Positions 6,615-55,306 of a stretch of 64,000 bases of DNA are shown here, piece by piece. The DNA is taken from the IMG/VR virus record IMGVR_UViG_3300021431_000075, positions 192,001 through 256,000 of that record, one strand, 5' to 3'. The notes beneath the pieces were generated by a model, which had not been told where the DNA came from, searched no databases, and worked only from the letters and a program-made list of their open reading frames with translations. Source of the stretch: a virus (Duplodnaviria > Caudoviricetes). The translations under genes and the position numbers were made by a program. Within the stretch, counting starts at the first letter, position 1. Each line of letters opens with the position of its first letter.

Positions 6615-7205
6615 ATGGATTACTACATAAAGTTATCAGACTATGCGAAGCGTTTCGGAGTGACATACCGGACTGCATGGAACCGCTACAAGCGCGGACA
6701 GTTTCCAGATGCTATAATAGACGAGACGAATCACATTTGCATACCAATCAAGCATTTTGTAAGCGATGAAAACATCTCTGTTGCAGTGTATGCACGCGTA
6801 TCTTCGTCAGAGAATAAGAGTAATCTTGACAGCCAAGCAGAACGTCTTGTGAACTATTGCATGGCTCGCGGCTACAAGGTTTCAAAGGTCGTAAAGGAAG
6901 TCGGTTCGGGGTTGAACGACGAGCGACCGAAGCTTGACAGTTTATTGAAGGACAGAAGCATAAAAATCATAGTCGTTGAACACAAGGACCGCTTCTCAAG
7001 ATTCGGTCTCAATTACATACAGACTCTGTTGAGCATGGATGACAGGAAGATAGAGATAGTTAACGAGTCTGGCGATGACAAGGAAGACTTGATGCAGGAC
7101 TTTGTCTCTATAGTGACTTCATTTTGTGCAAGGCTCTATGGGTTGCGTAGGAATAGAAGAAGGACAGAGAAGTTGATTCAGGAACTTCAGAATGAAGATA
7201 AATAA
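6615..7205 (+). CDS. tnpA: IS607 serine-recombinase transposase TnpA
   Basis: N-terminal HTH (LSDYAKRFGVTYRTAWN), YARVSS catalytic motif, EVGSGLN, VEHKDRFSRFG, SFCARLYG. Confidence 0.95.
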   Translation: MDYYIKLSDYAKRFGVTYRTAWNRYKRGQFPDAIIDETNHICIPIKHFVSDENISVAVYARVSSSENKSNLDSQAERLVNYCMARGYKVSKVVKEVGSGLNDERPKLDSLLKDRSIKIIVVEHKDRFSRFGLNYIQTLLSMDDRKIEIVNESGDDKEDLMQDFVSIVTSFCARLYGLRRNRRRTEKLIQELQNEDK

Positions 7206-14806: not shown

Positions 14807-15061
14807 TTATTCGATTTTCTTGAAAAAATACTCAATCGCGCTGTGAACGTATATGAAATGCGTAGGGGTCTCCGCACACAAGTCGCCATATGGATTGTAC
14901 AAATCAGGTTTGTCAATCACGAGCTTCTTCGCAATACCCGGACAATATTTGTTTATCAGAACACGTAGTTCTTTTTCTGGATACGGAGTCGAATTTCGCG
15001 TCAAGCGTTCCCATTCTTCTACCGTTATTTCTGCACTATTACAATCATATCTAATTTTCAT
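14807..15061 (-). CDS. Hypothetical phage protein
   Basis: 84 aa with a YNPY...THFIYVHSAIEYFF C-terminal motif. Confidence 0.7.
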   Translation of the reverse strand: MKIRYDCNSAEITVEEWERLTRNSTPYPEKELRVLINKYCPGIAKKLVIDKPDLYNPYGDLCAETPTHFIYVHSAIEYFFKKIE

Positions 15062-18753: not shown

Positions 18754-18766
18754 ATCTTGTCTATAA

Positions 18767-20956: not shown

Positions 20957-20973
20957 CTCTTGTCTAATTCACA

Positions 20974-23133: not shown

Positions 23134-23152
23134 CGCCTTTTCGTCAATTCAA

Positions 23153-25372: not shown

Positions 25373-25385
25373 TTCGCATATTCGA

Positions 25386-29809: not shown

Positions 29810-29827
29810 CTTTCCATATCGTCTCGA

Positions 29828-32032: not shown

Positions 32033-32047
32033 CTTCTCTATTGTCGT

Positions 32048-34246
32048 TTATATGATGCTTACCGGCTTTCCTGAACAGTCCGCAAACGAGTTCGGTCCTA
32101 TCCGGACAAGACCGTCGCATGCCGGCGCTATCGGGAAAGTCGTCCATTCATCAAGCAGCCGTTTTCCGTTCACGTCGAACATGTTGTACACGAAGCGGTT
32201 GTCCTTGACAGACTGGACAGCAACAACCTCGTCCGGAGAAATCACGTAGTGCTTATGGATGAATGTCGTTCCGCTGCCTCCGAATATCAGGACTCCTGTC
32301 TTGCACGCAAGCAAGTCCCAGACATCGGACTTGTCCCCGTCATCGCTCTTGACTTGAACTCCGACAAATCCGCCGTCGATATCTCCGACATATCCGAACC
32401 AAGTATCCGAAACAAGATTGCCGTCCGCATCAATCAGATTTTTCTGCTCACGCGAAAAAACCATTGCATAGTTTTCACGGAAAGGATTGATTGACGTAAG
32501 TCCCTTGTCGATTTCAACAGGACCTGCACCCCATTTCCATAGAATGGATTCTGAGAAAATTTTCTTGCGGACATCAGCAAAACCGTTTCCGACATAGGTT
32601 ATGCTGGCGTATTCCATCTTGTCGCAGCACATCGTTCCGTCCGGACTTATCAGGTTTACAAATCCGTTCAAGAAAGAAAACTCCGGAAAAGTCTGAACCT
32701 TATAGTAATCGAAACCGTCAGTTCCGGTATTCTCTTCGACATACTTGAACACGGTTCCGCCAAACAGCGCATCGCAAGTGCCAGTGTCCATGAACACCCA
32801 GCCGTCGCCGGTCTGTGCCGCGAACATGCCGCGTTCCGGCCAACCGGCAAGACCGTTGAACCAAGTCTTGCAGACAAGGCTTCCGTCCTCTCTCATGTAG
32901 TTGTACTTGTTGCTGGTCGAGCTTTCGGTCTCTGTGAACCTGCATACCTTTGCGAACCCGTTCACCATGACGCCGCAGTCTCCGCGCAGCCAGTCTGTCA
33001 GGAGGATATTTCCGTTTCTGTCAGCATAGTTGTAATAGCGCGTCCGCGCTTCCCTGTCATACTTGCTGATTCTTGCGACAACGCGCTTGCGGTTAGGATC
33101 GAGAGCGCTGGGACCTATGTTCGGAGAATCGAAATCGACAGAGTCATACCAGTCCGAAAGGACAGGCTTTCCGCTCTTGTCAATGAAGTTGTTTACGCAT
33201 TTCTGAAGCTCATCGTCATATCTGGATATCTCGGCAATACCGTCAACAAAGTTCCCGATAAAAACACACCAGTCTTTCAACAGCAGGTTCCCGTCCTTGT
33301 CAATCAGGTTATACTCGGTACCGCCGCTATTTTTCCTTTTTGATATCTGGAAGTATCCTTCCGAGAACTCTGAATAATCTGTATCGAAGTCATACGTCAG
33401 CTTGCTTCCGTCCATCTTCAGGAAATTATATTCCGATATTGCGAACTGTACCAGCAGCAGTCCGTACTTGTTGAACTTTCCGAAACTGGCTCTATACAAG
33501 TCAACATCCCTCTCGAACATGCAATTCCCGTCAGAGTCGAACATGAACATCTTCTCATCGCCGTCCGACAAGCCGAAACTATATGCAACGAATCGACTCC
33601 TTGCGTCATCGACCGCTTCCATGAATCCCATGTTTCTTGCCATCCTGACAAACATTCCCGCAAACTTATTGCATCCGCTATTCGAATTCCAGCCGCGCCG
33701 ACCGCAATGGAACGTCCACCGCCATCCCCTTTCAAAGAATACGCTATATATGGTTTCGCTATCCTGTTTCCAGAAAGCCATTCTCAATCCGCCGTCGCTG
33801 TCCAGCCTGCATCCCACGGCACACTGAAACAAACGCGCTGATATTGTTACAATGGATTCCGCATTCTCGGCAGACTTCGGGATGGTCACATCCACTGACA
33901 AAACCGCGCCCTTGCCGTATATCTGCTTCAGGTTATTCGTATTCCTTACCCTTCTTGCATAGGTATCCAGATTCGGAACATCTTCAGCCTTTCCGCTCTT
34001 CTTGATGAAACTCCACGACTCGACCAGACCCGAAGACTTCAGCCTGCCGAGCGCAGGTTCCATTGCCGTTTTGAAGAATACGTTCTTGACAATAGCGACT
34101 GAATAGTCGCATTTGAAATGGAACATGAACCTGTACACGACACTCTCCTCGACGACGTCATCGTCTGCGACCTCGTCAGCATCGGCATCGTCAAGCAGAC
34201 TCTCGTTCAATGCATATATGCTATCCGGAAATCCTCCCATTGTCAA
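32048..34246 (-). CDS. WG-repeat protein, paralog 8 of 8
   Basis: Same architecture; the start is probably MGGFPD at 34240. Confidence 0.85.
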   Translation of the reverse strand: MTMGGFPDSIYALNESLLDDADADEVADDDVVEESVVYRFMFHFKCDYSVAIVKNVFFKTAMEPALGRLKSSGLVESWSFIKKSGKAEDVPNLDTYARRVRNTNNLKQIYGKGAVLSVDVTIPKSAENAESIVTISARLFQCAVGCRLDSDGGLRMAFWKQDSETIYSVFFERGWRWTFHCGRRGWNSNSGCNKFAGMFVRMARNMGFMEAVDDARSRFVAYSFGLSDGDEKMFMFDSDGNCMFERDVDLYRASFGKFNKYGLLLVQFAISEYNFLKMDGSKLTYDFDTDYSEFSEGYFQISKRKNSGGTEYNLIDKDGNLLLKDWCVFIGNFVDGIAEISRYDDELQKCVNNFIDKSGKPVLSDWYDSVDFDSPNIGPSALDPNRKRVVARISKYDREARTRYYNYADRNGNILLTDWLRGDCGVMVNGFAKVCRFTETESSTSNKYNYMREDGSLVCKTWFNGLAGWPERGMFAAQTGDGWVFMDTGTCDALFGGTVFKYVEENTGTDGFDYYKVQTFPEFSFLNGFVNLISPDGTMCCDKMEYASITYVGNGFADVRKKIFSESILWKWGAGPVEIDKGLTSINPFRENYAMVFSREQKNLIDADGNLVSDTWFGYVGDIDGGFVGVQVKSDDGDKSDVWDLLACKTGVLIFGGSGTTFIHKHYVISPDEVVAVQSVKDNRFVYNMFDVNGKRLLDEWTTFPIAPACDGLVRIGPNSFADCSGKPVSII

Positions 34247-34277: not shown

Positions 34278-35096
34278 TTATTTCCCGGAAAGCGTACGGG
34301 CTATCCTGTCCATGCATGTCCGGTAGTAGTCCGCGTCCTTCTCGAATCCGACAAACCTTCTTCCGGTCTCTATGCACGCGACCGCTGTCGTCCCGCTTCC
34401 AATGCAGTTGTCAAGGACCAAGTCTCCCTCGTTCGTGAACGTCTTGACCAGTTCCTTGACCAAGTCAAACGGCTTCTGCGTCGGATGCAGGTTGCTTGTC
34501 AGGATATCCCTCTTGAACCTCCAGACCTGCGTGGGGTACCGCTTGCCGGTGTCCTTGTACTCGAACGGCTTCTTGGTTCCGTTGTCTGTCAACACCCCAA
34601 GTCTGCCGCTGCCAATCTTGTTGGTTCTCTTCGGACCTGTGTATTCAATCATCTGCGGATTGTACGTGCATTGCTTCCTGTAAAATACGGATATGCACTC
34701 GACATCCTTTCCGACCCTGCGCTTGACCTGCTGAATATTCGTGAGTCTTTCCTTCTGCCAGTATATGTCATACTTGTAGTCGCTGATGTTACTGACTCTC
34801 AGATAAGACGAGAACGGTTCCTGCCCGAACAATAGCACGGCTCCGTTCTCATTGACTATCCTGCGGTAGCAACTCCATAGCCTGTCAAACGGAATCACGG
34901 TATCCCACGGACAAGCGGTCGTCCCGTATGGCAAGTCGCAAATGACGCAGTCCACGGAACCGTCCGGAATGAACTCCATCCCGTCCAGACAATCGCAGTT
35001 GTACACAGAATCCGGATCAACCACTCCGGTCTCTTTAAGATAATCCAAGTCCTTGACCGGACAGCAGCATTCATTATTGTCTATAGTGCCGTTCAT
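34278..35096 (-). CDS. N4/N6 DNA methyltransferase (beta class), orphan
   Basis: CDLPYG, HPTQKP, VLDNCIGSGTT. Confidence 0.9.
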   Translation of the reverse strand: MNGTIDNNECCCPVKDLDYLKETGVVDPDSVYNCDCLDGMEFIPDGSVDCVICDLPYGTTACPWDTVIPFDRLWSCYRRIVNENGAVLLFGQEPFSSYLRVSNISDYKYDIYWQKERLTNIQQVKRRVGKDVECISVFYRKQCTYNPQMIEYTGPKRTNKIGSGRLGVLTDNGTKKPFEYKDTGKRYPTQVWRFKRDILTSNLHPTQKPFDLVKELVKTFTNEGDLVLDNCIGSGTTAVACIETGRRFVGFEKDADYYRTCMDRIARTLSGK

Positions 35097-35366: not shown

Positions 35367-36629
35367 TCAAATCAGCGGTTCGCATCTGTCCGGAAACTGC
35401 TCCCTGAAAGAGAATCTCCGCACGATGTCCTCATCACCCAGCATGAACCTTGCAAAGAGCTCGGCAACTGATACGTTGATGCTGTTGCCGAACTGCCTGT
35501 ACGCGACAGCGTCGCTGCCGTTCATGATGAAGGAATCCGGAAACGACTGTATCCTTGCGCACTCCCTCGGCGTCATGAAGCGCCGTCTCCATCCGATGAT
35601 GCTTGTCTGCGTTATGGCGACCAGAGCCGGGAAGTAAGTCGGCGGCTTCACCCTCAGTCCGCTCGGCCTGAACTGCATGATGTTGTTCCATATATCGCTA
35701 TCCGAATCTATCACGCCAGCCTGCCACTCCAGCTTCGCCTTGGCTCCGAAGAACTTCGGACACTTCCTCGACTCTGCAAGCCATCTGTCGATGAACTTCC
35801 GGTTCCTTGCGTACAGTTCCGCATTTTTTGCAGTGATGTTCCGCTTCCAGACCGGCATCGCTTCCAGCTCGCTGTTGTCAAACTTCCGGAATGCTTCAGT
35901 CCAGACCGGAAAAGACAGGTTCTCTGTCGTTCCGAGTTCCCTTATGAACATGTTCCAGTCGTCTATCAGTTCGACTAAGGAATCCTTTAGTCTGTACCTG
36001 TCTATATTCACTATCTCGCTGTCGGCATGCAATACGGACTCTACACTGCATTCAGGAATGTTCTCCGGATTGAAGCAGAAATCCGGCACTTTGCCAAGGT
36101 CGTTCCTCCTGCACACGATGAACACCCTTTCCCTGTGCTGCGGGATTCCAAGATAATGCGGACTGAATATGACAGGCTCCCTGCCGAGCGAGTACCCGAG
36201 TCCGGTCAATGTCTCGTATATGACCCTCCATGTGTTTCCGCGGTCGTGCGACGCAAGGTTCCTCACGTTCTCAAGGATGACGAACCTCGGCTTGTGCCGC
36301 TTTATGATCCTGCACACGTCGAAGAAAAGGGTTCCCTTGGTCTCGTCCGCGAAGCCGAGCCTCTTTCCGGCCTTGGAGAACGCTTGGCACGGAAAGCCCG
36401 CGCACAGCACGTCATGCTCCGGGATGTCGTTCTCGTCAACGGCGGTTATGTCAGCGGCAGGCTCGATTCTGTAGTTCTCCGCATAAGTCTTCCTGCACTG
36501 CGGGTCTATGTCGCACGCGAACACGCACTCTCCGCCGAGCCGCGTCATCGCCTGATGGAACGCGCCGACTCCGCAGAACAGGTCTATGAACCTAAAGTCT
36601 CCATTCATCTGTTGTCGTCGATTAAGCAA
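35367..36629 (-). CDS. C5 DNA cytosine methyltransferase, orphan
   Basis: FIDLFCGVG, GFPCQ, ENV, PQHRERVF, TPRECARIQSFP, QFGNS. Confidence 0.95.
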   Translation of the reverse strand: MLNRRQQMNGDFRFIDLFCGVGAFHQAMTRLGGECVFACDIDPQCRKTYAENYRIEPAADITAVDENDIPEHDVLCAGFPCQAFSKAGKRLGFADETKGTLFFDVCRIIKRHKPRFVILENVRNLASHDRGNTWRVIYETLTGLGYSLGREPVIFSPHYLGIPQHRERVFIVCRRNDLGKVPDFCFNPENIPECSVESVLHADSEIVNIDRYRLKDSLVELIDDWNMFIRELGTTENLSFPVWTEAFRKFDNSELEAMPVWKRNITAKNAELYARNRKFIDRWLAESRKCPKFFGAKAKLEWQAGVIDSDSDIWNNIMQFRPSGLRVKPPTYFPALVAITQTSIIGWRRRFMTPRECARIQSFPDSFIMNGSDAVAYRQFGNSINVSVAELFARFMLGDEDIVRRFSFREQFPDRCEPLI

Positions 36630-36662: not shown

Positions 36663-37610
36663 TCAGACGTTAGACGGGTCCATATATTTACAGAGCGTCC
36701 AGTTAGACGGGTCCTTATATGCGCAGAGCGTCCTGAAGTACTCCGGCCTGTGCATTCCGAGCTTTCCGGACACGTACCGGTAAACCATGGTTCCGAGCAT
36801 GTCGCTGATTTCGTCATGCGAAGTCCATGCCGCCTTGTTGCCGGGACCTATCAGCAGGTACCGTATGGAGCCGTTCCTGTACTGTAGAAGGTATACGCAG
36901 AAGTCCCCTGTACCGGTATCTTCCGTCCACCTGTACTCGAACTTGCCGCACGTGACGAGACCGTCCGTCGGCATGAACGTCTCAACCTGCTGCCTCGACG
37001 GCTTCGCGATTCTGCAAGTCAGCTTCCATCCGTATTTCCGTATGTCAAGCAGGCAGTTCCTGTAGAGCCTGTCCATGATTTCGACAAGGTCGCTCTCCCT
37101 TCCGGGTATCTCCGAGCGCTTGACATACTTGCTCGTCACCATGTAGTAGTCATGGTCCTTGTCGAACGGACAGTTATAGTCAGCGAACAAGTACGGGATG
37201 TACATGTTCTCAAGGACGCCTCCATATGCGTACATCTGCACGTCCGAGTACATGTTGGAGTCCCCCGATGTGCTGAAGTGCAGGCAGGTCCTGTTGTCGA
37301 GCTCGTTCATGCAGTCAACCAGAGCCTCGAACTTGTCAGTACGGAAGTCGAAACTGTAGTCCCGCTCCCCGTCCTCCGTGTAGAAGTCGTCCTCCTCCTT
37401 GAAGAGAACAATCTTCATCCAGTCCTCGTCTCCGCTTGTCTGGTACCTCTTTGTCCGGTACCTCTTGGCGAACTGGCTGGTCATGAACACGCTCACGCCG
37501 AACTTGCGGCATATCCTCCTGACCCTGCGCAGCTCGTCATCGGGGACGCTGTCCCTCGTCATGTTCTCGACCCTGAACCGGTTCGACGGAACCGTGTCAA
37601 ACTCCTTCAT
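36663..37610 (-). CDS. Unknown-family paralog 1 of 6
   Basis: ICRKFGV...DCMNELDNRTCLHF motif. Confidence 0.8.
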   Translation of the reverse strand: MKEFDTVPSNRFRVENMTRDSVPDDELRRVRRICRKFGVSVFMTSQFAKRYRTKRYQTSGDEDWMKIVLFKEEDDFYTEDGERDYSFDFRTDKFEALVDCMNELDNRTCLHFSTSGDSNMYSDVQMYAYGGVLENMYIPYLFADYNCPFDKDHDYYMVTSKYVKRSEIPGRESDLVEIMDRLYRNCLLDIRKYGWKLTCRIAKPSRQQVETFMPTDGLVTCGKFEYRWTEDTGTGDFCVYLLQYRNGSIRYLLIGPGNKAAWTSHDEISDMLGTMVYRYVSGKLGMHRPEYFRTLCAYKDPSNWTLCKYMDPSNV

Positions 37611-37628
37611 TGCTATCTTCTATTCCGT

Positions 37629-38606
37629 TTATTCATTTATCTGCCGATTTGCCGCATGCATCCCTATGCGTTCCTCGACATTCTTCCTGACTTCATCAGG
37701 ACCGTACATGGCAAGCTCGCCTTCCAAGCGCAGGTTCAGCATCTGAACCGCGTACAAGCCTTTCTTGCAGTGACCGCGTCCTGATTTGTCAACCAGCAGA
37801 TTGAACACGGTGCCGGAAGAATACTGGAACACGTATATGCAGAAGTCCCAGGTCCCGGCTCCGGGACCGCATATGAAGTCAATCCTCCGGCAGAACGCGA
37901 TTCCGCCGAGTGGAGCGAACCGGGACAAGAGATGCATATCCGGCTTCGCCAGCCTGCATGCGATGCCGGTAGGACCCGAGCATATCTTCCCGACAACCAC
38001 CGCGTATGTCTCGTCGAACCTGCTTGCAAGATAGCGCTTATCCACAAGACTTGCCTTGACGTTCCTGCACCTCGCCATGACATAGTTGTCGCACTCGCTG
38101 CTGAACGGGCAGTTTCCGTACTCGCTGCGGACAACCCTCCTTCCGGGTCCGCCGCCCACGATGCCGAGCAGATCGTCGTAGGAAACCCATCCTAACCTCT
38201 CATAGTACAGCATCACGTTGCCGCCGCCCCAGTCCTCGGTTTTCGTCTCGAAGCGCAGGCTCGTCCTGCAGTCGATTTCGTGGATGCAGTCCGCAAGCTC
38301 GTCAACCCCGTCCCTTCCGTCAGGAACCGTGCCCAGCACGTCCGCGGAAAAGTCCGCAAGCTCGGTAAAGAATACGATCTCGAACTCGTCGCTTCTGTCA
38401 TATGTCTCGGCATACTCCGCGACCATCACGAAGTTGACGCCGTGCCTGCGGCAAGTTTTCCTGACAACGTCCCATTCCCTCTCGGGGATGTCGCCGCGCA
38501 TCCTTTGCCCGTACGAGGTCGTCTTATCCGCAGACGGAACTATGTCATAGTCAATCTTGAATTCCATCAGCATATGTCCATATAGTTTTCTATCCTTGAC
38601 CTGCAC
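37629..38606 (-). CDS. Unknown-family paralog 2 of 6
   Basis: TCRRHGV...DCIHEIDCRTSLRF; the start is probably ~38573. Confidence 0.8.
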   Translation of the reverse strand: MQVKDRKLYGHMLMEFKIDYDIVPSADKTTSYGQRMRGDIPEREWDVVRKTCRRHGVNFVMVAEYAETYDRSDEFEIVFFTELADFSADVLGTVPDGRDGVDELADCIHEIDCRTSLRFETKTEDWGGGNVMLYYERLGWVSYDDLLGIVGGGPGRRVVRSEYGNCPFSSECDNYVMARCRNVKASLVDKRYLASRFDETYAVVVGKICSGPTGIACRLAKPDMHLLSRFAPLGGIAFCRRIDFICGPGAGTWDFCIYVFQYSSGTVFNLLVDKSGRGHCKKGLYAVQMLNLRLEGELAMYGPDEVRKNVEERIGMHAANRQINE

Positions 38607-39481
38607 TCGTCCGGACCCGTCATTCCCTCAATGCAGAAGCTTCCGCCAGACATGTAGTCGCCAAACAGCATGGAGACTGTCAGGTTCGTGATGTCCATAT
38701 CTTCCCCGAACATGTTCACTCCGCACTTACCGTCGCTTCCGATAAGCACGACCGCCTTGTCCCCGCATCCGTACTGAAGCATGTAGACGCAGAAGTCCGC
38801 GACTTTCGATTCTGGACCGCAGATGAAGTCTATCTTCCTGCAGAACGTGATTCCGTCCACCGGCGCGCACTTGGAAATCTGGATTCTCGACGGCTTCGCG
38901 ATTCTGCATACGATGTCATATCCCTTGACGCGTATCGTCCTGATACACTTCCCGTATATCCTTGCGAACTCGTCTTCCATGATACTGCCTGCGCTCACCG
39001 CCGTCTTGAAGCGCGTGCAAAAAGCAACCATGTACTGGTACTGCCTGTCCATTGGACAGTTTCCCAGCTCTGACAAAACCACGCTGCTCTCGTCAAGCTC
39101 CGCAAGCACGTCGTCATATGTTGCGAACTCGATGCAACCGTATACCTTTCTGGCGGCATCCTGCAATCTGTCCATGCGTGCGTTTTCTGTCTTGAAGAAC
39201 AGGCTTGTCCTGCAGTCGATGTCGTTGACAAGCCCGGCAATGTCCGCTATGCTTCTCTTCGGATACGAATCGCCGCGGTACACGCAAATCAGCACAATCT
39301 TGTACAGGCATCTGGACGTGCCTGTCTTGCAAACCGCATAGTTCGCCCCGTGCATGCGGCACAGCCTCTTGACTGCAAGCATGTCTCTCTCGCACGGTTC
39401 CCTGTCAATCAGGCTACCGTGCAGGGACCTGTCCGCGGACGGCATTGTATATCTACGATAAGTAGAAATTATGTCAGTCAT
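38567..39481 (-). CDS. Unknown-family paralog 3 of 6
   Basis: LCRMHGA...LVNDIDCRTSLFF. Confidence 0.8.
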   Translation of the reverse strand: MTDIISTYRRYTMPSADRSLHGSLIDREPCERDMLAVKRLCRMHGANYAVCKTGTSRCLYKIVLICVYRGDSYPKRSIADIAGLVNDIDCRTSLFFKTENARMDRLQDAARKVYGCIEFATYDDVLAELDESSVVLSELGNCPMDRQYQYMVAFCTRFKTAVSAGSIMEDEFARIYGKCIRTIRVKGYDIVCRIAKPSRIQISKCAPVDGITFCRKIDFICGPESKVADFCVYMLQYGCGDKAVVLIGSDGKCGVNMFGEDMDITNLTVSMLFGDYMSGGSFCIEGMTGPDECRSRIENYMDIC

Positions 39482-39496
39482 AAAAAGATTATGTCA

Positions 39497-40474
39497 TTAA
39501 AAGATTATAGAACGCTCTCTGTCAAGAATTTCCGCTGCCAGTTCGGCGCATATTCCGTGAGGATTACGGAAATCGACATCGCCGAGCATGCACTTGTCAA
39601 CAAGGTCCGCGACAACGTCCCCTGCCGTGTCCGGATATGTTCCGCAAGGCTCGATGTGAACCGTTCCGTCAGCACGGACAAGGACCGCAAGCTTAACGCC
39701 GTCCGCGTACCGGACAACCGCCAGGGAGAAGTCGGGAACGTTCCTGCAATGCGTGAACTCGAACATGCACGCGCCGCCGATGCCATCCAGAGGAACATGC
39801 ATCCTTAGCCATTCAATCGTGCACCTGCGGATTCTGCAAACCGCATGACAGTTCCTCGCAACCGTGACAAGCCTTCCGTACAGTTCCGCTATATCGCTAC
39901 CGATGCCGGCATTGACCGGTTCCGTCCCGCGCTCGACAGGCTTCATTTGGTCGCATTCCACAGCCATGAAAACTTTTTCATTCCGGCATAGCTCGACAAA
40001 CGACTCCTTGCCAGCATCATCTCCATCAAATTCGGAGAATATGACCGGTTCGTGCATGAACAACTGCAGATTGGTTCTCGTCGTGAGCGACGGGTCCATA
40101 TACGACTCACGGTTTCTCGTCTCGCGGGCGAACATCAGTCCGGTGCGCAGGTCCAGCTCGTGAATGCAGTCCATCAGCCTTATGTAACGCTCGTCGCTGT
40201 CCTTGTCCATGACACCATCTGCGCTTACAAAGAACAAGAAGTGGAACCTGCTGTCAGCATCCCCGGTGCCATGCTCGGCAGTATCAAACTCCTTGCACAT
40301 CAGGAAATGAACGCCATGCTTCCGGCATGTCTTCCTGACTATGGCGGCATCCCGAGACGAGACGCTGTTCATGTATATCGGTCTCCCGCTCCCGATCCGC
40401 CACTTCGACGCTATGATGTCATACTCTCTCATCCGCGTACAGAACCATCTTTTTCCTCTCGTTGTCCATGACAA
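39497..40474 (-). CDS. Unknown-family paralog 4 of 6
   Basis: TCRKHGV...DCIHELDLRTGLMF; the start is probably MREYD (~40432). Confidence 0.8.
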   Translation of the reverse strand: MSWTTRGKRWFCTRMREYDIIASKWRIGSGRPIYMNSVSSRDAAIVRKTCRKHGVHFLMCKEFDTAEHGTGDADSRFHFLFFVSADGVMDKDSDERYIRLMDCIHELDLRTGLMFARETRNRESYMDPSLTTRTNLQLFMHEPVIFSEFDGDDAGKESFVELCRNEKVFMAVECDQMKPVERGTEPVNAGIGSDIAELYGRLVTVARNCHAVCRIRRCTIEWLRMHVPLDGIGGACMFEFTHCRNVPDFSLAVVRYADGVKLAVLVRADGTVHIEPCGTYPDTAGDVVADLVDKCMLGDVDFRNPHGICAELAAEILDRERSIIF

Positions 40475-41351
40475 CCTTTGCTACCTGCTCCCTCTCCTCG
40501 TCACCGAACGGAATGACGGCAAGCTCTCCGGACATGTACCTCTCCACAAGCATCGTCACGAAGTCGAACATGTATATGCTGCATCCCCTGACATCGGCGC
40601 ATCCGTCTGAACGGACAACCGCGACAAGCATGCTGCCGTCCGCGTACTGGACAACCGCAAGCGAGAAGTCGTCCACGTCCGCGCATCCGCTGAACCCGAA
40701 CCTGAACGCCCTGACGACTCCCTCGGCAGGAACATACCTCCGCAGCCATCCGGGCTGGCACCTGAGGATTCTGCATTCCGCGCGGAATTTCCTCGCGACC
40801 TCGACAAGCCTTCCGTACAGCTCGCCGACGGCGCTGCCGAGATTGATGATCCTGTGCTTTTCCGGCTTGTCACCCGGCTTCATGGCATCGCACGTGACGA
40901 CAAGGTACCTTCTCGACGCGTCATAGAAGCCTTCCGCCTTCAGCGCGTCTTCGGTCATGACCGAACCGCCTGCAAGACAGCAGACGACCGGCTTGAGCGT
41001 GCATGTCTCCAGAAGGAACCCGCTCTGATATTCCGGCTCCTCGTACATGCTGCCGGTCAGATGCGAGACCTCGAACAGCAGCCCTGTGCGCAGGTCCAGC
41101 TCGTGGATGCAGTCCATCAGCCGGTCCGCCTGCTCGTTGCTATCCGTGCCCGGACCGGTCCTGACGAAAAACCTGAACCTGAACCTGTCCATTTCCGCAT
41201 TCCCGGTACCCTTGCTGCTGAATATGAAATCAACCCCGTGCTTCCGGCAGACCTTCACCACGGTATCCATCTCCGCTTCCGTGACGCTGTCCGCGTGGAT
41301 GTCCCGTCCTGCAAAGTCCGTCCGGGACGCTATGATGTCAAACATTCTCAT
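40419..41351 (-). CDS. Unknown-family paralog 5 of 6
   Basis: VCRKHGV...DCIHELDLRTGLLF. Confidence 0.8.
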   Translation of the reverse strand: MRMFDIIASRTDFAGRDIHADSVTEAEMDTVVKVCRKHGVDFIFSSKGTGNAEMDRFRFRFFVRTGPGTDSNEQADRLMDCIHELDLRTGLLFEVSHLTGSMYEEPEYQSGFLLETCTLKPVVCCLAGGSVMTEDALKAEGFYDASRRYLVVTCDAMKPGDKPEKHRIINLGSAVGELYGRLVEVARKFRAECRILRCQPGWLRRYVPAEGVVRAFRFGFSGCADVDDFSLAVVQYADGSMLVAVVRSDGCADVRGCSIYMFDFVTMLVERYMSGELAVIPFGDEEREQVAKVVMDNERKKMVLYADERV

Positions 41352-41367
41352 AACCGTACAATATTCA

Positions 41368-42249
41368 TCATGGTTTCTTTGTCCGCGGCTCCCTCAGCAG
41401 TCCGTCAACCGCGTGGGTGATGTACATCCGGATCAGGTACGTCAGCACGTTTTCACTGAAGTTCTTCGAATCGATGGAATATCCGAGACCGTCCCTGGTC
41501 ACAAGAAGGTACGTGAACTGTCCATCACTCTTCTGGACGACATACAGCGAGCAGTTGTCGCGGAGCGGAACCTTTCCGAACCTTATCCGGACCTTGCACG
41601 CTGACACGACATCCCCGGCATCCACGAATCCGCCGAGCTCCCCGGCGTCAACCCTCGCGCCGGACGCAACGGTGTCGTATCCGTTTGCGAAGAACCACCG
41701 GGACAGCCTCTCCAACACTCCGCCGGTTCCGGATGCAAGAATGTCATTGTCTGTTCTCGGAACCATCCAGTACTTGCTCTCGACATATATGTACAAATAT
41801 CTGCAGTTGAACGGACCGTTCATGAACTCTCTGACCGGATAGCGGATATAGTCCTTCAGCGTCCTGTATGACACGGTGAACGGCTCCACGTACCTGTTTC
41901 CGCCAGAAGCCTCCACGCACGGAAAGTTCAGCGGAGTCCTGTTGTCAAGCTCGTTGACAAGGTCTGTCAGCCGCTTGGACTCGTCATCCGAATCCGCAGG
42001 CGCATCCGCGGGCGCGTCCGGATCCAGGTTCAGGAAGAACACGTACGAGAACACTGTTCCGGATTCGTCGAGCCTGTTCAGGATGCAGTTCACGCCGTGC
42101 TTTCTGCAGCACCTGCCGACAAGGGCGTTGAACGGCTCGCTCGACGCGATTTCCCTGCCGATCCGCCTTGTCTCGAAAGCGGTCTCGCCGTTCCTCCACG
42201 ACGACGGGACAGACTCGTACTCTATTCGTGATGCGATAGCCATTAGCAA
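41368..42249 (-). CDS. Unknown-family paralog 6 of 6
   Basis: CCRKHGV...DLVNELDNRTPLNF. Confidence 0.8.
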   Translation of the reverse strand: MLMAIASRIEYESVPSSWRNGETAFETRRIGREIASSEPFNALVGRCCRKHGVNCILNRLDESGTVFSYVFFLNLDPDAPADAPADSDDESKRLTDLVNELDNRTPLNFPCVEASGGNRYVEPFTVSYRTLKDYIRYPVREFMNGPFNCRYLYIYVESKYWMVPRTDNDILASGTGGVLERLSRWFFANGYDTVASGARVDAGELGGFVDAGDVVSACKVRIRFGKVPLRDNCSLYVVQKSDGQFTYLLVTRDGLGYSIDSKNFSENVLTYLIRMYITHAVDGLLREPRTKKP

Positions 42250-43076: not shown

Positions 43077-43862
43077 ATGAAAAAACTATGGGACTGGCTT
43101 CTCTCCCTGTTCAGGAAGAAGCCTGCTGAAAATACGGAACCCGAGAGTCCGCAGACGGCATCCGACAGCGGTAATGGCTGCAGTTCCGGCACGGTTGATG
43201 ACGTCGATGACAATGAACCGTGGCCTGCGTTCCCGGATGAACCGGACATTCAGGAAAACGGAGTCACAGAACCTGAAACAGAGCACCTGCACGAGCCTGA
43301 CATCGCGCCCGGCATCATCGTCACGGAAGAGTCCAAGGTCGAGGTGCATGACGCTCCGTCATCAGAGCCTGACGTGCTGCAGGCGTCCCCGAAGAGCATC
43401 ATGCTCTCTCCGCACTTCTCACTGCACGAGCTGACCAACAGCGCGACCGCCGTCAGATACGGAATCGACAACACGCCGAACGACACGCAGACCGCGAACC
43501 TCGTCCTGCTCTGCCAGAAGGTGCTTGAGCCTATAAGGGTCAAGTACGGAAAGCCTGTCGTGGTGAGTTCCGGGTTCAGGTGTCCGGCTCTCAACAGGAA
43601 GGTCGGCGGCGCGTCGACAAGCCAGCACGTATCCGGACAGGCGGCTGACATCCACAGCGTGTCTGACACGCTTGCGGACAACAAGAAGCTGTACGACCTG
43701 ATAGTCAGGAGCGGCATCGTGTTCGACCAGCTCATATACGAGTACGGAAACTCGGCAGGTCCGGACTGGATACACGTGTCGTTCAGCTCGAAGGGGAACC
43801 GCAGGCAGAAGCTCAGGGCGACCAAGTCCGGTTCCAAGACCGTATACACGGTCGTCAAGTAG
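43077..43862 (+). CDS. Peptidase M15 family Zn-metallopeptidase (endolysin-like) with acidic N-terminal extension
   Basis: LSPHFSLHEL, SSGFRC, SQH..GQAADI, WIHVS. Confidence 0.88.
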   Translation: MKKLWDWLLSLFRKKPAENTEPESPQTASDSGNGCSSGTVDDVDDNEPWPAFPDEPDIQENGVTEPETEHLHEPDIAPGIIVTEESKVEVHDAPSSEPDVLQASPKSIMLSPHFSLHELTNSATAVRYGIDNTPNDTQTANLVLLCQKVLEPIRVKYGKPVVVSSGFRCPALNRKVGGASTSQHVSGQAADIHSVSDTLADNKKLYDLIVRSGIVFDQLIYEYGNSAGPDWIHVSFSSKGNRRQKLRATKSGSKTVYTVVK

Positions 43863-48750: not shown

Positions 48751-49305
48751 ATGAGACACAGAACCACAAACCGTTCGGTATACGAAGACATACTGAAGGA
48801 TGTCAGGAAGATTGTCCGCAGACACCTGAACGAGATAAACATAATGGGAGTCGAGGTTGACTCCGCAATCCAGGGAAAGATGAGCGACCTTGACGACATA
48901 GACAAGGAGGTTCCGTTCAAGGACAGGAAGATAACCGAGACCGTGCAGGGAATCTACAAGAAGATGTTCCTCGGCAAGTACGCGTACTTCATGAAGCAGA
49001 ACAAGATGCAGGACACGATAGAGTGGTCGTACAAGATGAACAGCGCATGCACCGACGGGTTCGAGGGAAGGCTGGTCATGAATCCGGAATTCGCGACGTT
49101 CATATACGAGAACACCGGAGAACTCGGAATCCAGTTCATCATCCTGCACGAGACGATGCACAACTACTACAACAACGTGAGGCACGCGCAGAAGGTGGAC
49201 TCTGTCGCAGCGAACATATCCGTGGACAGGAGAATCAACGGGGAAATCATCAGCAGGTGGCCGGAGTTCAAGGAGATTCCGGAGAAGATTGGCGCGCTGC
49301 TGTGA
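48751..49305 (+). CDS. HEXXH metallopeptidase-like protein (DUF2201-like)
   Basis: SACTDG, NPEF, ILHETMH, ANISVDRRIN; start assigned to MRHRT. Confidence 0.75.
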   Translation: MRHRTTNRSVYEDILKDVRKIVRRHLNEINIMGVEVDSAIQGKMSDLDDIDKEVPFKDRKITETVQGIYKKMFLGKYAYFMKQNKMQDTIEWSYKMNSACTDGFEGRLVMNPEFATFIYENTGELGIQFIILHETMHNYYNNVRHAQKVDSVAANISVDRRINGEIISRWPEFKEIPEKIGALL

Positions 49306-49385: not shown

Positions 49386-49548
49386 TATGTACAGGTACAT
49401 TATTTGTTATCATATATTGAAAATTATATAAAATATATGATTGTTTAACATCATTTAACAAGTAATATTACAATCCTGATTTCTTTTATTGCTATATTTG
49501 CATCATGTTTTTAAATCAAAACAATATGAACAGTTGCTATGACATAAT

Positions 49549-49648
49549 AAAAAAGAAAGAATCGCTCAATGAACGACTCTCTCTAATGCGAAAACGCAAC
49601 GGTAAAATTCGTAAAGAATAAACCTTATTGCGAATCACTTGCATACAT
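49549..49648 (-). ncRNA. tracrRNA
   Basis: 5' anti-repeat AUGUAUGCAAGUGAUUCGCAAU complementary to the CRISPR repeats, then AAGG nexus, hairpins and terminator plus U6. Promoter TACCTTTGCA (rc 49651-49660) with TTTG ~20 bp upstream. Confidence 0.88.
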
Positions 49649-49728
49649 GGTGCAAAGGTAAGCATATTGTTCGGTTCATGCAAATATAATTACAAGAATA
49701 TTTCATTCATTAATAATTTTTAACAAAA

Positions 49729-52700
49729 ATGAAAAAAATCATCGGTCTTGACCTCGGCACGACGACTGTCGGATGGTCTTATCTGAAAGTGCCGGAGAAT
49801 GAAAATGAAACACTGGAAGTCGTCGACTCTGATCCCAGAATCATACCGACAGCGTTGAACAAGACGGAATTCGACGCATACCAGCAAGGAAACGCTGTTA
49901 CGATAAACGCAGACAGACGGAAGTATAGAAGTTCAAGAACTGTCAAGAAAAGATACAAGGAACGCAGGAGAGACCTGACAAACCTGTGCATATCATGCGG
50001 CTTCATAAAAGACAAATCCGAACTCACATCATGCGAGTCTACGAAATTCTTCCAGACACTGAAAGTAAGAGCTGCTGCTGTTACAGAGCAAGTTTCCCTT
50101 CAGGACCTTGCTCGTATTCTTGTCCAGATAAACAAGAAGCGTGGATACAAAAGCAGCAGGAAACTGAACAAGGCTGACACTGAATCGACCGGAAGCGTCG
50201 ATGTTGCCATGAAAATCCGAACCAGCGGGATGACTCCGTCGCAATACACGTACAGCAGGATGCAGTCAGGCAACTTTGCCGTTCCGTCATACTTCAAGTC
50301 GGATTTGGTGAACGAGCTTGATAGAATATGGAACTTCCAGAAAAGGTTCTATCCGGATATTCTGACAGACGAGTTGTGGAAAGAGATGGATGGGAAGAAG
50401 CAGAGGGATACGATTTCAATTTTTAAGAAACATGGCATCATGCAGGACGACTGCAAGGAAGCAAGCGCGAATGAGAAAAAAATGAATATCGCGAAATGGG
50501 GTGTTGATGCCATTAGCGAACAGATTCCGCTATCCAGACTTGCGACAGTCATCGCAGTCCTGAAAGGCAAGATAGGCGCGACAAGCGAGATGCTTGACAC
50601 TCTTGGCGATCACACAATAATCCTCACAATCAACAACTGGTCTATCGGACAGTACTTGATGGACATCGTCAAGAAAAACAGCAATGCGAGAATCAGCAAC
50701 ATCAGGTTCTATAGAAACGACTACGACAATGAGTTCAGCATGATATGGAACAAGCAGGCTGAATTCTATCCGGAACTGACCGATGAGCTAAAGAAGAAGT
50801 TCCATGACATCATATTCTTCCAGAGACCCCGTCCGAGCATGAAGTACCTTGTCAACTACTGCGAGCTTGAGAGCAAAGAAATCGAGGTCGTCAAGAACGG
50901 AAAGAAGATAAAGGTAACTACTGGGAGCAAGGTCTGTCCGAAATCATCGCCGCTGTTCCAAGAATTCAGATTGTGGCAGACGTTGAACAACATACAGGTG
51001 AAGGATACCAAGACGAAAGATTCCAGACGGCTTTCTGTCGATGAGATGAACATCCTTGCATCCGAACTTGAGACCAGAGAGAAACTGGACAAGAGCGAAA
51101 TACTCAAGATTCTGGATATAAACCAGAACGACTTCGATATCAACTACAAGAAGATACCCGGAAACAAGACACAGACCGCGCTGCTCAACGCATACTTATC
51201 CGTAATAGAGTCTATGGGGAACGAACCATTTGATGTTGAAAATGCAAGCGGTTCACAACTGATGGACTATGTCAAGAACTCGTTTGAAAAGAACGGATTC
51301 AACGCAAGCGTCCTACACTTCAACTCCGACACGAACGACATCTCGAAAGACAGCATGTACATGCTATGGCATCTTCTGTATTCATATGCAGGAGACAACT
51401 CCAGACTCGGTTTTGAATCGCTCATCACGAAAGTAAGGGAGATGCTCAACTTAAACAACGATGACCAAGCAAAGGCTGTCGTGGGAGTGATGCTCGAAGA
51501 AGACTACGGAAACCTAAGCGCGAAAGCGATGAAGAAGATTCTTCCGTTCATGAAGAAAGGGCTTGAATACGACAAAGCTTGCGAGCAAGCCGGATACAAT
51601 TTCTCGAAAACATCAATCCGGAAGTCGGAATACAGCAATCAGGTTTTGCTTGAACATCTTGAACTGCTGCGAAAGAACAGTCTCCGCAATCCGATAGCCG
51701 AGAAAATCATCAACCAGATGATCAATGTCGTGAACATGCTGATTGACAAGTACGGAAAGCCGGACGGTTTCTGCGTAGAGCTTGCACGCGAACTGAAGAA
51801 CAGCATAAAGCGCAGAAAGGAAATATACGAACAGAACCAGAAAGCCGAAGAATACAACAACAAAATCAAAGATATTATATCAAAGCCTCCGTTCAACTGC
51901 CCATATCCGTCGGAACAGAAGAACATCGACAGATACAAGTTGTACGAAGAACTTGAGCCGAACGGGTTCCGAACTCTGTACTCAGGAACCCTGATAAAGC
52001 CGGAAGAACTGTTTTCCAATAAGTTCAATAGGGAGCATATCATCCCACAGGCAAGGACGACAGACAACAGCCTGTCCAACTTGACACTTGAACTTGAGAC
52101 ATCAAACAGCGACAAAAGCAGCATGACTGCATATGACTATGTCCGGTCAATCGGCAAGACAGAAGAGTATGAGCAAAACGTGAAACGGATATTCGAGAAC
52201 TATTCTCCGGCATTGCTTAAGAAGCGCGGGCTTCCTGAAAACTACGGAAAGACGAAGGCGAAGAACCTCATGACAACATCAGAAGAGATACCGTCCGGAT
52301 TCATCGAGAGAGACCTCAAGCTCACCCAGTTCATCACGAAGAAATGCGCGGAGATTCTTCAGCAACTTGTCGGCATAGAGAACGTAAGGTTCACGACAGG
52401 ACAGGTGACGTCGCAGCTTCGGGAAGACTGGGGTCTCAACGATATGATGAAGGAACTGAACATGGAAAGGCTTGAGGCTTCCGGAAACGTGTATGAAGTG
52501 ACATACGCGAACGGGAACACAGTGAAGAAAGTGAACAACTTCACGAAGCGCAACGATCACCGGAACCATGCCCTTGATGCAATCATCATTGCATGCACTA
52601 CACAAGAGCATATCGTATACATGAACAACAAGAGTTCAAAAGGCAAGAAGAACGGGCAGATATACAAAATCATCAAAACGAAAATGCATAGGGATGGCGA

Positions 52701-54066
52701 GGGAAAACTGCGGTTCAACCCTCCGGTTCCATATGATGTTTTCCATTCCGTTGTCAAGAACGCGATGGAGAATATGATTGTATCCCACAACAAGAAACTG
52801 TCTCCAGTGACTACCGGCAAGAGCGTATCCAAAGACGGAACCGTTACAAAGAACGTAGTTCCGCGCGGTCCGCTCCATGACGACACGTTGTACGGTCAAA
52901 GAACCGTGAACTCGATAAGGTATGTCATGGTCTCTGAAGGCAAGGACGGTTTGTCAAACAGCATCATCGACTGTATAGCGAACCAGTCATACAGAGACGC
53001 AGTCAAGCAAAGGCTTGCGGATTACTCTACGTTGAAGAAGGCGTTCGGAAAAGACAACAACGTCATCGACAATCCGATATGGCTGGACAAGATTCACTCT
53101 GCAAAAGTTCCGCCGTTCGTGAAGATAGTCGAGACAGAAAAGATATTCACCATCAGAAAGAAGCTGGATAAAAAGGATATGTTCAAACTGCACACGTTCA
53201 AAATCAACGGCACTGAACTGGTAGAAGGCAAAAGCAAGAAACACATCAGCGACGCGTTCTGTGAGCCATATGCGAGCCATATCAAGTGCTTGATGCTATC
53301 AGGAACATGCAAGACTCTCAAATGCGCCATAGAAAGAAGCGGAGCCGACTTCATCCACTGGATAGACGAAGACACGTTCATATCATTCAAGTCCGTAAGA
53401 GAACTTGTTATTGACAAGGCATGCGCGGATGCAATCATCAGAAGGATTGTAGATAGCAAATGTGACTTGAAAGCAGCATTCGAGAACATAGACAATAATC
53501 CGATATGGATTGATGACAAGCACACGAGATTCGTAAGCAGAGTGACTATGAAAGCATTCATCACAGACAACAGCTCTGTTCAAATACGGAACGGAAAAAC
53601 CAGCGTGAAAACGAACAACAACCATACTGCCGCTTTGTATATGAAACCGAACGGAACTGTAGAGATGGTCGTGGTATCTTTCTTTGATTCTGTCAACAAG
53701 TCCGTGTGCAGGAAGCCTGTCATAGACAAGGAGTTCAACAAGGAACTCGGATGGAAGTTCATCATGTCATTCGTGAAGAACGATATACTCATTCTCAAGA
53801 ATGACGAGACCGGATTCGACCCGAAAAAGATAGACTTGACCGACAGAAGCAACAACTCTTTGATTGCTCCGAATGCATATAGAGTCCAGAAGTTTTCGGA
53901 TGACATGTGCATGCTAAGGCATATCAATGATACTACAACCGAAATCGGTCCTGCTGGAAACTTCAAGTCATTATACGGAAAGAAAAATCTGAGGATTTTA
54001 GCAGATGCGGTGAAAGTCAAGGTCGATAGCATCGGACACATTTGTTTAGAAACTGATTGCATGTAA
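49729..54066 (+). CDS. cas9: Type II-C Cas9 (Bacteroidota-type)
   Basis: RuvC-I GLDLGT, Arg-rich bridge helix, KKRGYKSSRK, RuvC-II VELAREL, HNH EHIIPQ..DNSLSN..N, RuvC-III NHALDA. Confidence 0.97.
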   Translation: MKKIIGLDLGTTTVGWSYLKVPENENETLEVVDSDPRIIPTALNKTEFDAYQQGNAVTINADRRKYRSSRTVKKRYKERRRDLTNLCISCGFIKDKSELTSCESTKFFQTLKVRAAAVTEQVSLQDLARILVQINKKRGYKSSRKLNKADTESTGSVDVAMKIRTSGMTPSQYTYSRMQSGNFAVPSYFKSDLVNELDRIWNFQKRFYPDILTDELWKEMDGKKQRDTISIFKKHGIMQDDCKEASANEKKMNIAKWGVDAISEQIPLSRLATVIAVLKGKIGATSEMLDTLGDHTIILTINNWSIGQYLMDIVKKNSNARISNIRFYRNDYDNEFSMIWNKQAEFYPELTDELKKKFHDIIFFQRPRPSMKYLVNYCELESKEIEVVKNGKKIKVTTGSKVCPKSSPLFQEFRLWQTLNNIQVKDTKTKDSRRLSVDEMNILASELETREKLDKSEILKILDINQNDFDINYKKIPGNKTQTALLNAYLSVIESMGNEPFDVENASGSQLMDYVKNSFEKNGFNASVLHFNSDTNDISKDSMYMLWHLLYSYAGDNSRLGFESLITKVREMLNLNNDDQAKAVVGVMLEEDYGNLSAKAMKKILPFMKKGLEYDKACEQAGYNFSKTSIRKSEYSNQVLLEHLELLRKNSLRNPIAEKIINQMINVVNMLIDKYGKPDGFCVELARELKNSIKRRKEIYEQNQKAEEYNNKIKDIISKPPFNCPYPSEQKNIDRYKLYEELEPNGFRTLYSGTLIKPEELFSNKFNREHIIPQARTTDNSLSNLTLELETSNSDKSSMTAYDYVRSIGKTEEYEQNVKRIFENYSPALLKKRGLPENYGKTKAKNLMTTSEEIPSGFIERDLKLTQFITKKCAEILQQLVGIENVRFTTGQVTSQLREDWGLNDMMKELNMERLEASGNVYEVTYANGNTVKKVNNFTKRNDHRNHALDAIIIACTTQEHIVYMNNKSSKGKKNGQIYKIIKTKMHRDGEGKLRFNPPVPYDVFHSVVKNAMENMIVSHNKKLSPVTTGKSVSKDGTVTKNVVPRGPLHDDTLYGQRTVNSIRYVMVSEGKDGLSNSIIDCIANQSYRDAVKQRLADYSTLKKAFGKDNNVIDNPIWLDKIHSAKVPPFVKIVETEKIFTIRKKLDKKDMFKLHTFKINGTELVEGKSKKHISDAFCEPYASHIKCLMLSGTCKTLKCAIERSGADFIHWIDEDTFISFKSVRELVIDKACADAIIRRIVDSKCDLKAAFENIDNNPIWIDDKHTRFVSRVTMKAFITDNSSVQIRNGKTSVKTNNNHTAALYMKPNGTVEMVVVSFFDSVNKSVCRKPVIDKEFNKELGWKFIMSFVKNDILILKNDETGFDPKKIDLTDRSNNSLIAPNAYRVQKFSDDMCMLRHINDTTTEIGPAGNFKSLYGKKNLRILADAVKVKVDSIGHICLETDCM

Positions 54067-54109
54067 ATATCAAAATACGGAAGATACAAAATCAATTTCT
54101 ACTTTGTGT

Positions 54110-54715
54110 GTTGCGAACCGCTTGCATATATACATTAAACATCAAAGGATGTCATTCAGGCTGTTGCGAACCGCTTGCATACATACACATTAAACACATA
54201 AGTTCACATGGCGAAGAATACAACTTTTGTTGTGAACCGCTTCCATACATACACATTAAACACCAGCCGAGTATGAGAGGATCCTGATTATGTTGTGATT
54301 TGCTTGCATACATACACATTAAACACCCACTAACGTGCTCTCTTGCACTATGCAGTTGTGATTCACATGCATACATACACATTAAACACCGGCATCGTTC
54401 TTCACTTTTATACACGTTGTGTTTCACTTGCATACAGATACATAAAACACCAGCGGAGAAACTTTCCTCATCAAGTTCTACGTTGTGTTTCACTTGCATA
54501 CAGATACATAAAACACCTTAATGCATCTTGGAGCAAAATAAACTCGAGTTGTGTTTCACTTGCATACAGATACATAAAACACCTTCATCCGGGTCTGTAG
54601 TCGTAGCCCAATTGTTGTGTTTCACTTGCATACAGATACATAAAACACCATAGCCTTGTTCCTGAAAATGCGCTGCAAGGTTGTGTTTCGCTTGCATACA
54701 GATACATAAAACACC
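54110..54715 (+). CRISPR. CRISPR array, 10 repeats / 9 spacers, 36-bp repeat GTTGTGTTTCACTTGCATACAGATACATAAAACACC
   Basis: Repeats start at 54110, 54163, 54229, 54292, 54355, 54416, 54482, 54548, 54614 and 54680. Spacers are 19, 30, 27, 27, 25, 30, 30, 30 and 30 nt. Repeats degenerate toward cas9. Confidence 0.97.
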
Positions 54716-54865
54716 ACACTTCTTATAACTGTGTGGTGTTTAATATTTTATGAGCAATATTGGATTTATAAAATGATAATATATAAATATCAATTACATA
54801 AAAATTCTATTTTTTAATTTCTATTTATATACAATAAAAAGACAATACGTAAAAACACATACAAG
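54716..54865. promoter_or_regulatory. Putative CRISPR leader (AT-rich) at the cas9-distal end
   Basis: Very AT-rich and adjacent to the most uniform repeats, consistent with type II-C reverse orientation. Confidence 0.65.
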
Positions 54866-55160: not shown

Positions 55161-55232
55161 AGCACAGATTGACGTTTATAAGTTACAATTATTATACAAC
55201 AAAAGTTCCGGATAGTTTAAAATAAGTCCAAG

Positions 55233-55306
55233 TGATCCGGACAGGATTCGAACCTGCGACCCGCAGTTTAGGAAACTGCCGCTCTATCCTGCTGAGCTAC
55301 CGGACC
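55233..55306 (-). tRNA. tRNA-Arg(CCU), CCA not encoded
   Basis: GGTCCGG acceptor stem, TAGCTCAGCAGGATAGAGC D-arm, anticodon loop TTCCTAA, GGTTCGAATCC T-loop. Confidence 0.95.

Follow-up and report, generated by a model that had tools for sequence, protein, structure and literature searches.

What is a Cas9 gene with its own CRISPR array doing in the genome of a huge phage, and can such a locus be at work when the genes for spacer acquisition are missing? The question is raised by positions 49,549 to 54,865 of a 64,000-nucleotide stretch, hereafter the window, of the IMG/VR virus record IMGVR_UViG_3300021431_000075 (Duplodnaviria; Caudoviricetes), for which a preliminary description made from the letters alone had proposed a minimal phage-borne type II-C CRISPR-Cas9 module without cas1 and cas2. 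We favour, with a probability of roughly 0.75, that this is a working interference-only Cas9 module owned by a 673-kb phage of Bacteroidota of the gut type. The proposed gene content, a cas9 without cas1 and cas2 together with a tracrRNA (trans-activating CRISPR RNA) and an array on a complete huge-phage genome, was borne out, while of the proposed activity we can say that the module looks functional, as judged from selection, co-variation and turnover.

The source genome is one contig of 673,114 bp, of which the window represents bases 192001–256000. The contig ends overlap by 127 bp and the IMG/VR record is listed as circularly closed with direct terminal repeats, and its CheckV completeness is 100%. 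A large terminase is encoded (Terminase_6N, E 1e-12) and the Cas9 locus lies about 240 kb inside the closed genome. The closed record and the terminase mark a bona fide phage genome. In two further assemblies (ENA ERZ12302814 and Logan SRR873597) the locus is base-for-base identical to the window. Moreover, a sister strain was found on five ENA contigs, showing the same gene order at 93% nucleotide identity and a Cas9 that is 94% identical. The neighbours of the module are mostly ORFans, accompanied by a weak GNAT match, a HExxH protein, a NUDIX hydrolase and a tRNA-Arg. The earlier statement that both flanks consist of unrelated phage-type genes could therefore be checked only in part.

The cas9 gene (49729–54066, plus strand) is the only one in the 673-kb genome and encodes 1445 amino acids (aa). 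The protein matched the Cas9 equivalog family TIGR01865 with 435.9 bits (E 4e-130), far above the cut-off of 100 bits, and the Pfam families RuvC_III, HNH_4 and Cas9_a were found in the same open reading frame (ORF). The catalytic residues of the RuvC (D8, E684, H947, D950) and HNH (H770, N784, N793) nuclease sites are all present, just as described before, and all seven are invariant in a 19-sequence alignment of relatives. Ahead of the C-terminal domains, at residues 1152–1224 (window ~53182–53400), the protein carries a phage-specific insertion, which comprises ~73 aa and includes four cysteines. None of the 17 bacterial relatives in the alignment has it, and it should fold into a compact small alpha/beta unit according to the structure prediction (predicted local distance difference test score, pLDDT, ~85–94).

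Upstream of cas9 a tracrRNA gene was recognised on the minus strand (49546–49673, with an approximate 5' end). Its anti-repeat (49626–49651, taken more narrowly ~49627–49648) resembles the repeats of the array in the same sense, and because of this the tracrRNA has to be read from the minus strand, divergent from cas9. Over 22 bp the anti-repeat can pair with the 5' ends of the repeats (their first ~22 nt; −28.7 to −31 kcal/mol), and it is followed by an AAGG-type junction, two hairpins, the first nexus-like and the second small, and an intrinsic terminator (49554–49584, minus strand) with a 14-bp stem and a U-run. At the level of sequence and fold all parts of a tracrRNA are thus in place (fold z-score −4.7), and no Rfam family matched the region. 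The reversed orientation with the CRISPR RNA (crRNA) on the minus strand was rejected, as the anti-repeat would then pair with the spacer-distal end of the repeat. A motif scan revealed two tandem TAnnTTTG boxes on the minus strand (49688–49681 and 49660–49653), which lie upstream of or at the anti-repeat and are kept in the sister strain, as well as a Bacteroidota-type −7 box TAnnTTTG on the plus strand (49493–49500), which is invariant there. We infer that the tandem boxes are candidate promoters for long and short forms of the tracrRNA and that the plus-strand box is a candidate promoter for cas9; a transcript starting from the latter would cross the tracrRNA gene in antisense. The divergent orientation suggested in the preliminary description holds, as judged from the sense of the anti-repeat, and the separate tracrRNA promoter that it had also assumed is represented by these candidates.

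The CRISPR array (54110–54715, plus strand) consists of 10 repeats of 36 nt and nine unique spacers and begins 43 bp past the cas9 stop codon, in agreement with the first reading of the sequence. From the cas9-proximal to the distal end the spacers measure 17–19, 30, 27, 27, 25, 30, 30, 30 and 30 nt, with the length of spacer 1 depending on the chosen end of the degenerate first repeat. The five cas9-proximal repeats are degenerate and go along with short spacers. Among the five distal ones there is at most one base of difference, and their spacers measure 30 nt. A hairpin (54709–54741, plus strand; −16.2 kcal/mol, z −3.9) is built from the final repeat's last 7 nt together with conserved sequence further downstream; it is kept in the sister strain and is a candidate terminator of the pre-crRNA and/or a candidate leader end for the insertion of new units. 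The array points in the direction of cas9 and the motif scan found no TAnnTTTG box in the phage repeats, and from both observations we suggest that the array is co-transcribed with cas9. Repeat-internal promoters and an antisense array are typical of type II-C systems (Neisseria, Campylobacter) without being universal; neither trait is seen in the phage.

The argument for a functional module is mainly based on the comparison with the sister strain. Between the two strains cas9 shows a dS (synonymous divergence) of 0.275 and a dN (nonsynonymous divergence) of 0.028, resulting in a dN/dS of 0.10 over 1444 codons. The tracrRNA regions are 98% identical, and the differences between them either leave the terminator stem paired via G-U pairs or hit the anti-repeat. 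There, positions 6 and 11 have changed in step with the current repeat of the respective strain, and each tracrRNA pairs better with the newest repeat of its own strain than with that of the other one (−28.7 vs −19.2 and −26.9 vs −24.7 kcal/mol). Of the 9–10 spacers per array, none is common to both strains, and within the sister strain the terminal spacer is missing in sample L003 and present in L001, L002 and L004. Both arrays share the same polarity, with degenerate units and short spacers next to cas9 and identical distal units with 30-nt spacers, and in both the last repeat adjoins the conserved hairpin-forming sequence. Polarity and turnover taken together argue for real acquisition, and the pattern is the one expected from polarised insertion of the Cas1-Cas2 type at the distal end. 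With respect to the crRNA, this polarity is also that of related bacterial arrays, whose degenerate repeat lies far from cas2. In addition, the arrays of L001, L003 and L004 contain one 30-nt spacer in two consecutive copies (L001:14938–14967 and 15004–15033), indicating that recombination or slippage between repeats also shapes these arrays. What appeared to be a third copy in L002 turned out to be a scaffold gap of Ns and not biology.

How can such an array be filled? Searches of the whole 673,114-bp genome with the Pfam profiles of Cas1, Cas2 and Cas4, which gave signal in control genomes, found none of them, and Cas1 and Cas2 taken from the nearest bacterial loci had no tblastn match in the 673 kb either. 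An effector and an array are hence present without Cas1, Cas2 and Cas4, and the lack of adaptation genes noted for the immediate surroundings extends to the rest of the genome. A comparison of the neighbouring ORFs with Pfam, PHROGs and PADLOC yielded no hidden Cas protein and no accepted defence match, PADLOC returning only two chance-level matches (E 0.004–0.006). Nothing was seen for csn2 in this PADLOC scan, with no family search being aimed at csn2. RNase III was not found anywhere in the 673-kb genome, so that crRNA processing would need a host enzyme. As the phage is also devoid of Cas1-Cas2, a host-supplied Cas1-Cas2 is the likeliest integrase, and its action in trans the likeliest and a plausible way of filling the array.

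To which bacterial systems is the phage module related? Apart from the sister strain, the best Cas9 matches show 36–45% identity, all derive from Bacteroidota and measure ~1365–1410 aa, which bears out the suspected divergence of the protein. The best match among solved structures is CbCas9 (PDB 8iyq), a type II-C enzyme, and a search against GenBank phages gave one distant 27% fragment only. In a maximum-likelihood tree, the kind of analysis that the preliminary description had called for, the phage pair is very divergent: its branch measures 1.36 substitutions per site and joins the Bacteroidota clade close to the base, at a point that is approximate only. By this long branch of its own, cas9 is not a recent capture. 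As in the large Bacteroidota II-C systems (CbCas9 and the Prevotella-family loci L070, L072, L073, L023 and L025), the phage protein shows the same domain order, the same catalytic residues and a similar size (~1370–1445 aa), and the arrays share a GTTGTG-type 5' end of the repeat, spacers of 29–30 nt and new units at the crRNA-downstream end. In contrast, the phage system is without cas1-cas2, which follow directly downstream of cas9 in all relatives, bacterial or from IMG/VR, whose locus extends past this gene. Its repeats have 36 and not 47 nt and are without the TAnnTTTG box that was seen in four of five related repeats examined, its array is co-directional with cas9 whereas theirs is antisense, and its Cas9 carries the additional 73-aa insertion. 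Compared to one 47-nt bacterial repeat, the phage repeat agrees in 14 nt at its start and 5 nt at its end and is 11 nt shorter. The split RuvC and the HNH domain of the effector with their catalytic residues, as well as the adjacent array with unique spacers, assign the locus to type II. Of the II-C gene set cas9, cas1 and cas2 only cas9 is present, and the proposed II-C assignment probably holds for the ancestry of the Cas9, while gene content, repeat length, array orientation and the internal promoter box differ from the relatives. Our favoured reading is that the ancestor was probably a large Bacteroidota type II-C system.

The spacers were then compared with possible targets. No self-match was found in the phage's own genome, none of the sister-strain spacers matched the 673-kb genome, and the window spacers had no match in the sister-strain sequence compared. 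Within this sequence, neither strain thus targets the other. Searches of GenBank phages with the spacers of both arrays gave noise only. IMG/VR contained no exact match to 22-mers from spacers 7, 8 and 9 of the window and from the spacer duplicated in the sister strain, nor to a 26-mer of the host-matching spacer described below, and spacer 9 was likewise not found in JGI metagenomes. In a sample of ~1,300 Bacteroidales genomes the newest spacers had no match and only the matches to a UPF0227 gene stand out; the others were dismissed, since they straddle repeat–spacer borders or are A/T-rich and of low complexity. A sister-strain spacer (L001:14481–14510) matches 27 of 30 positions (L043:1500–1529) of this gene, which encodes a 194-aa UPF0227 protein (alpha/beta-hydrolase, esterase), and lies across the GxSxG motif with all three mismatches being synonymous. 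The estimated chance expectation is ~0.005, before the synonymous pattern is counted. The match is present in two species of one genus of 59 species, whose family is shared with a Prevotella metagenome-assembled genome (MAG). The oldest spacer of the window (spacer 1, 54143–54159) agrees with the same gene in 16 of 17 positions at a site lying ~150 bp downstream (roughly estimated p ~1e-3). Both spacers are old and imperfect and are flanked by degenerate repeats.

The UPF0227 gene is located among the core genes aspS, oxaloacetate decarboxylase and Omp85, the neighbouring aspartyl-tRNA synthetase groups with MAG proteins that carry the NCBI label Bacteroidaceae bacterium, and the gene sequence was also found in a metagenome of the sister phage's cohort. 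Judged from these sequences, this points to an uncultured member of the Bacteroidaceae as the probable host and shows that host DNA has entered the array. The two species with the matching gene are without Cas9; type II-C loci occur in other members of the genus, and the repeats there measure 47 nt. As a single imperfect protospacer is too little to call a protospacer-adjacent motif (PAM), none is proposed. As to the idea of a weapon against competing elements or host genes, no spacer tested had a target in a competitor element. The only protospacers that seem credible are located in a gene of the host chromosome, and the spacers concerned are old and match imperfectly.

From these data the following model can be proposed. 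During infection cas9 and the co-oriented array would be transcribed together up to the hairpin in which the array ends, and the tracrRNA would be made from the opposite strand via the Bacteroidota-type promoters. It would pair with every repeat over the initial ~22 nt, and host RNase III would process the resulting duplex. Cas9 with its intact RuvC and HNH sites would then cut spacer-matching DNA beside a PAM. New repeat-spacer units would enter at the cas9-distal end by the conserved leader-like sequence, with Cas1-Cas2 presumably being supplied in trans by the host cell. Likely targets would be rival mobile elements and also, in earlier times at least, the chromosome of the host.

Several observations weigh against this model. 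Three assemblies of the window strain all have the same array, and the spacer polymorphism and the duplication seen in the sister strain could stem from inter-repeat recombination and not from acquisition. For the array no promoter was identified, and for the window-strain spacers no convincing protospacer was found in any collection searched. The proposal that the phage borrows host Cas1-Cas2 is in line with arrays that are polarised and turn over. On the other side, a pattern search with the phage repeat in 185,579 species genomes, IMG/VR and JGI metagenomes gave 9 + 1 single chance matches and no array, and hence no bacterial array with this repeat that would link it to a donor. The Cas9-bearing species of the candidate host genus possess repeats of 47 instead of 36 nt, which resemble those of the phage only at both repeat ends.

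We also considered that the module acts mainly on the host, with crRNAs sending Cas9 to chromosomal genes for cutting or silencing at takeover and not to rival elements. The only credible protospacers are indeed located in the core-chromosome UPF0227 gene with one spacer coming from each strain, a gene that also occurs in the cohort of the sister phage, and phage spacers against host genes have been reported (Al-Shayeb et al. 2020, PMC7162821). Yet both spacers (27/30 and 16/17) sit in the old, degenerate part of the arrays, the newest spacers are without a match in the Bacteroidales genomes sampled, and host-derived spacers could be by-products of adaptation taking place inside the host cell, making this explanation unlikely. 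A more far-reaching version seems quite doubtful to us: the array would be filled in trans by a host II-C Cas1-Cas2 despite the 11-nt shorter repeat, UPF0227 would be a selected host target kept independently by both strains, and Cas9 would serve as a tool for host takeover as well. An anti-defence decoy, in which phage Cas9 and tracrRNA soak up the crRNAs or tracrRNA of a host II-C system, has been proposed in the literature (PMC11656645), and one repeat of the host genus shares its first 14 nt with a phage repeat. Such a function is nevertheless very improbable here, as both nuclease sites are intact and conserved and no inactivated RuvC is seen, as the phage keeps its own array with repeats co-varying with the tracrRNA, and as the 47-nt host repeats pair only weakly with the phage tracrRNA (−11 to −16.5 vs −27 to −31 kcal/mol).

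The absence of cas1-cas2, the degenerate cas9-proximal half of the array with its shortened spacers and the lack of identified targets could likewise mean that we are dealing with the decaying, non-functional remnant of a captured bacterial locus. Against this stand the dN/dS of 0.10 over 1444 codons, the retention of all catalytic residues, the compensatory changes in the tracrRNA stem and anti-repeat, the full turnover of the array between the strains and the long branch of the Cas9, which speaks for an old capture and a maintained gene, and decay can hardly explain them. Finally, other IMG/VR contigs with a related Cas9 carry the bacterial order cas9-cas1-cas2 and may be bacterial fragments, so that bacterial DNA mis-assembled or mis-binned into the viral record has to be considered here, too. 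With a locus that is identical in three independent assemblies, syntenic on five contigs of a sister strain of 93% nucleotide identity and positioned 240 kb inside a closed 673-kb genome with a terminase, this is practically negligible. A working phage-owned module thus is the explanation that we prefer.

In which known class does this module belong? We group it with virus-encoded CRISPR-Cas systems lacking adaptation genes, a group that Al-Shayeb and co-workers are said to have treated in Cell in 2022. Furthermore, according to a 2026 survey the CRISPR systems of jumbo phages are mostly without adaptation genes. Cas9-based type II systems in phages have already been described (Al-Shayeb et al. 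2020, PMC7162821), and they resemble the present one in combining an effector and an array with conserved catalytic residues in the absence of Cas1, Cas2 and Cas4; their proposed role also is to compete with other elements or to act on the host. The Cas9 phage records in the supplement of that work have ~53–106 kb, with at least one Cas9 being annotated as Clostridium-like, whereas here a 673-kb Bacteroidota phage encodes a large, probably II-C-derived Cas9. The locus is therefore a new, very divergent example of this published class of phage-borne interference-only CRISPR systems (PMC7162821), and it stands out by its place in a megaphage, by an array that has been rewired and by its host-gene spacers. 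The type I-F system of the Vibrio phage ICP1 is similar as a phage-owned CRISPR system that is used offensively, but it has its own adaptation module, a class 1 effector and PLE as a known target (PMC11656645). A precedent for adaptation in trans is given by the type IV-A systems of plasmids, mobile elements without adaptation genes whose arrays are still filled, as they use the type I-E Cas1-Cas2 of their host (2024 review, PMC11656645). They differ in the effector class and in that the host partner has been identified only there. A phage Cas9 with its own tracrRNA is also known in a RuvC-dead form, proposed as a crRNA decoy (PMC11656645), in contrast to the intact RuvC and the array found here.

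The locus extends Cas9 systems to a phage lineage unlike that of the published Cas9 phages with their much smaller records. It also offers two natural strains that allow one to follow how Cas9, tracrRNA, repeat and spacers evolve together without resident adaptation genes. With ~40% identity to the nearest known Cas9 and a confidently folded extra domain, the enzyme may recognise a new PAM and might be useful as a tool. A testable host assignment for the megaphage follows from the host-gene spacers, which also provide a handle on whether host Cas1-Cas2 loads phage arrays.

Some further genes in the window are worth mentioning. Directly upstream of the tracrRNA and cas9, and on the strand of the latter, lies the 184-aa HExxH gene (48751–49305, plus strand). 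Its differences to the sister strain are mostly at third codon positions (27 of 41 substitutions), arguing that the plus strand is coding there and not the overlapping minus-strand ORF. The protein had no Pfam match, and the ESM Atlas gave as a lead only a DUF2201_N-like putative metallopeptidase (score 0.92). The tRNA-Arg (CCT; 55232–55306, minus strand) follows ~500 bp downstream of the array. In the sister strain an additional 479-aa ORF and a serine resolvase lie between the NUDIX gene and a 310-aa gene (L001:19231–21292); the window strain is without both, and the segment looks like a small mobile insertion. A second gene of the RNA-guided-nuclease type in the same phage encodes a 565-aa TnpB/Cas12f-like protein (7280–8977, plus strand) with OrfB_IS605 and Cas12f1-like TNB domains, preceded by a 196-aa ORF (6615–7205, plus strand).

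The region 16000–48000 differs from the rest of the genome in its GC content of 46–57%, compared to a genome mean of 40.7%. Eight tandem paralogues of ~720–760 aa with weak WG-repeat matches (16522–34246, minus strand) are found in this region, and the high-GC block also contains six paralogues of ~300–325 aa (36663–42249) as well as an N6/N4 DNA methylase (34278–35096) and a C5 DNA methylase (35367–36629). At 43077–43862 (plus strand) a Peptidase_M15_3 protein (E 1e-22) is encoded, a likely cell-wall hydrolase or endolysin that is kept in the sister strain.

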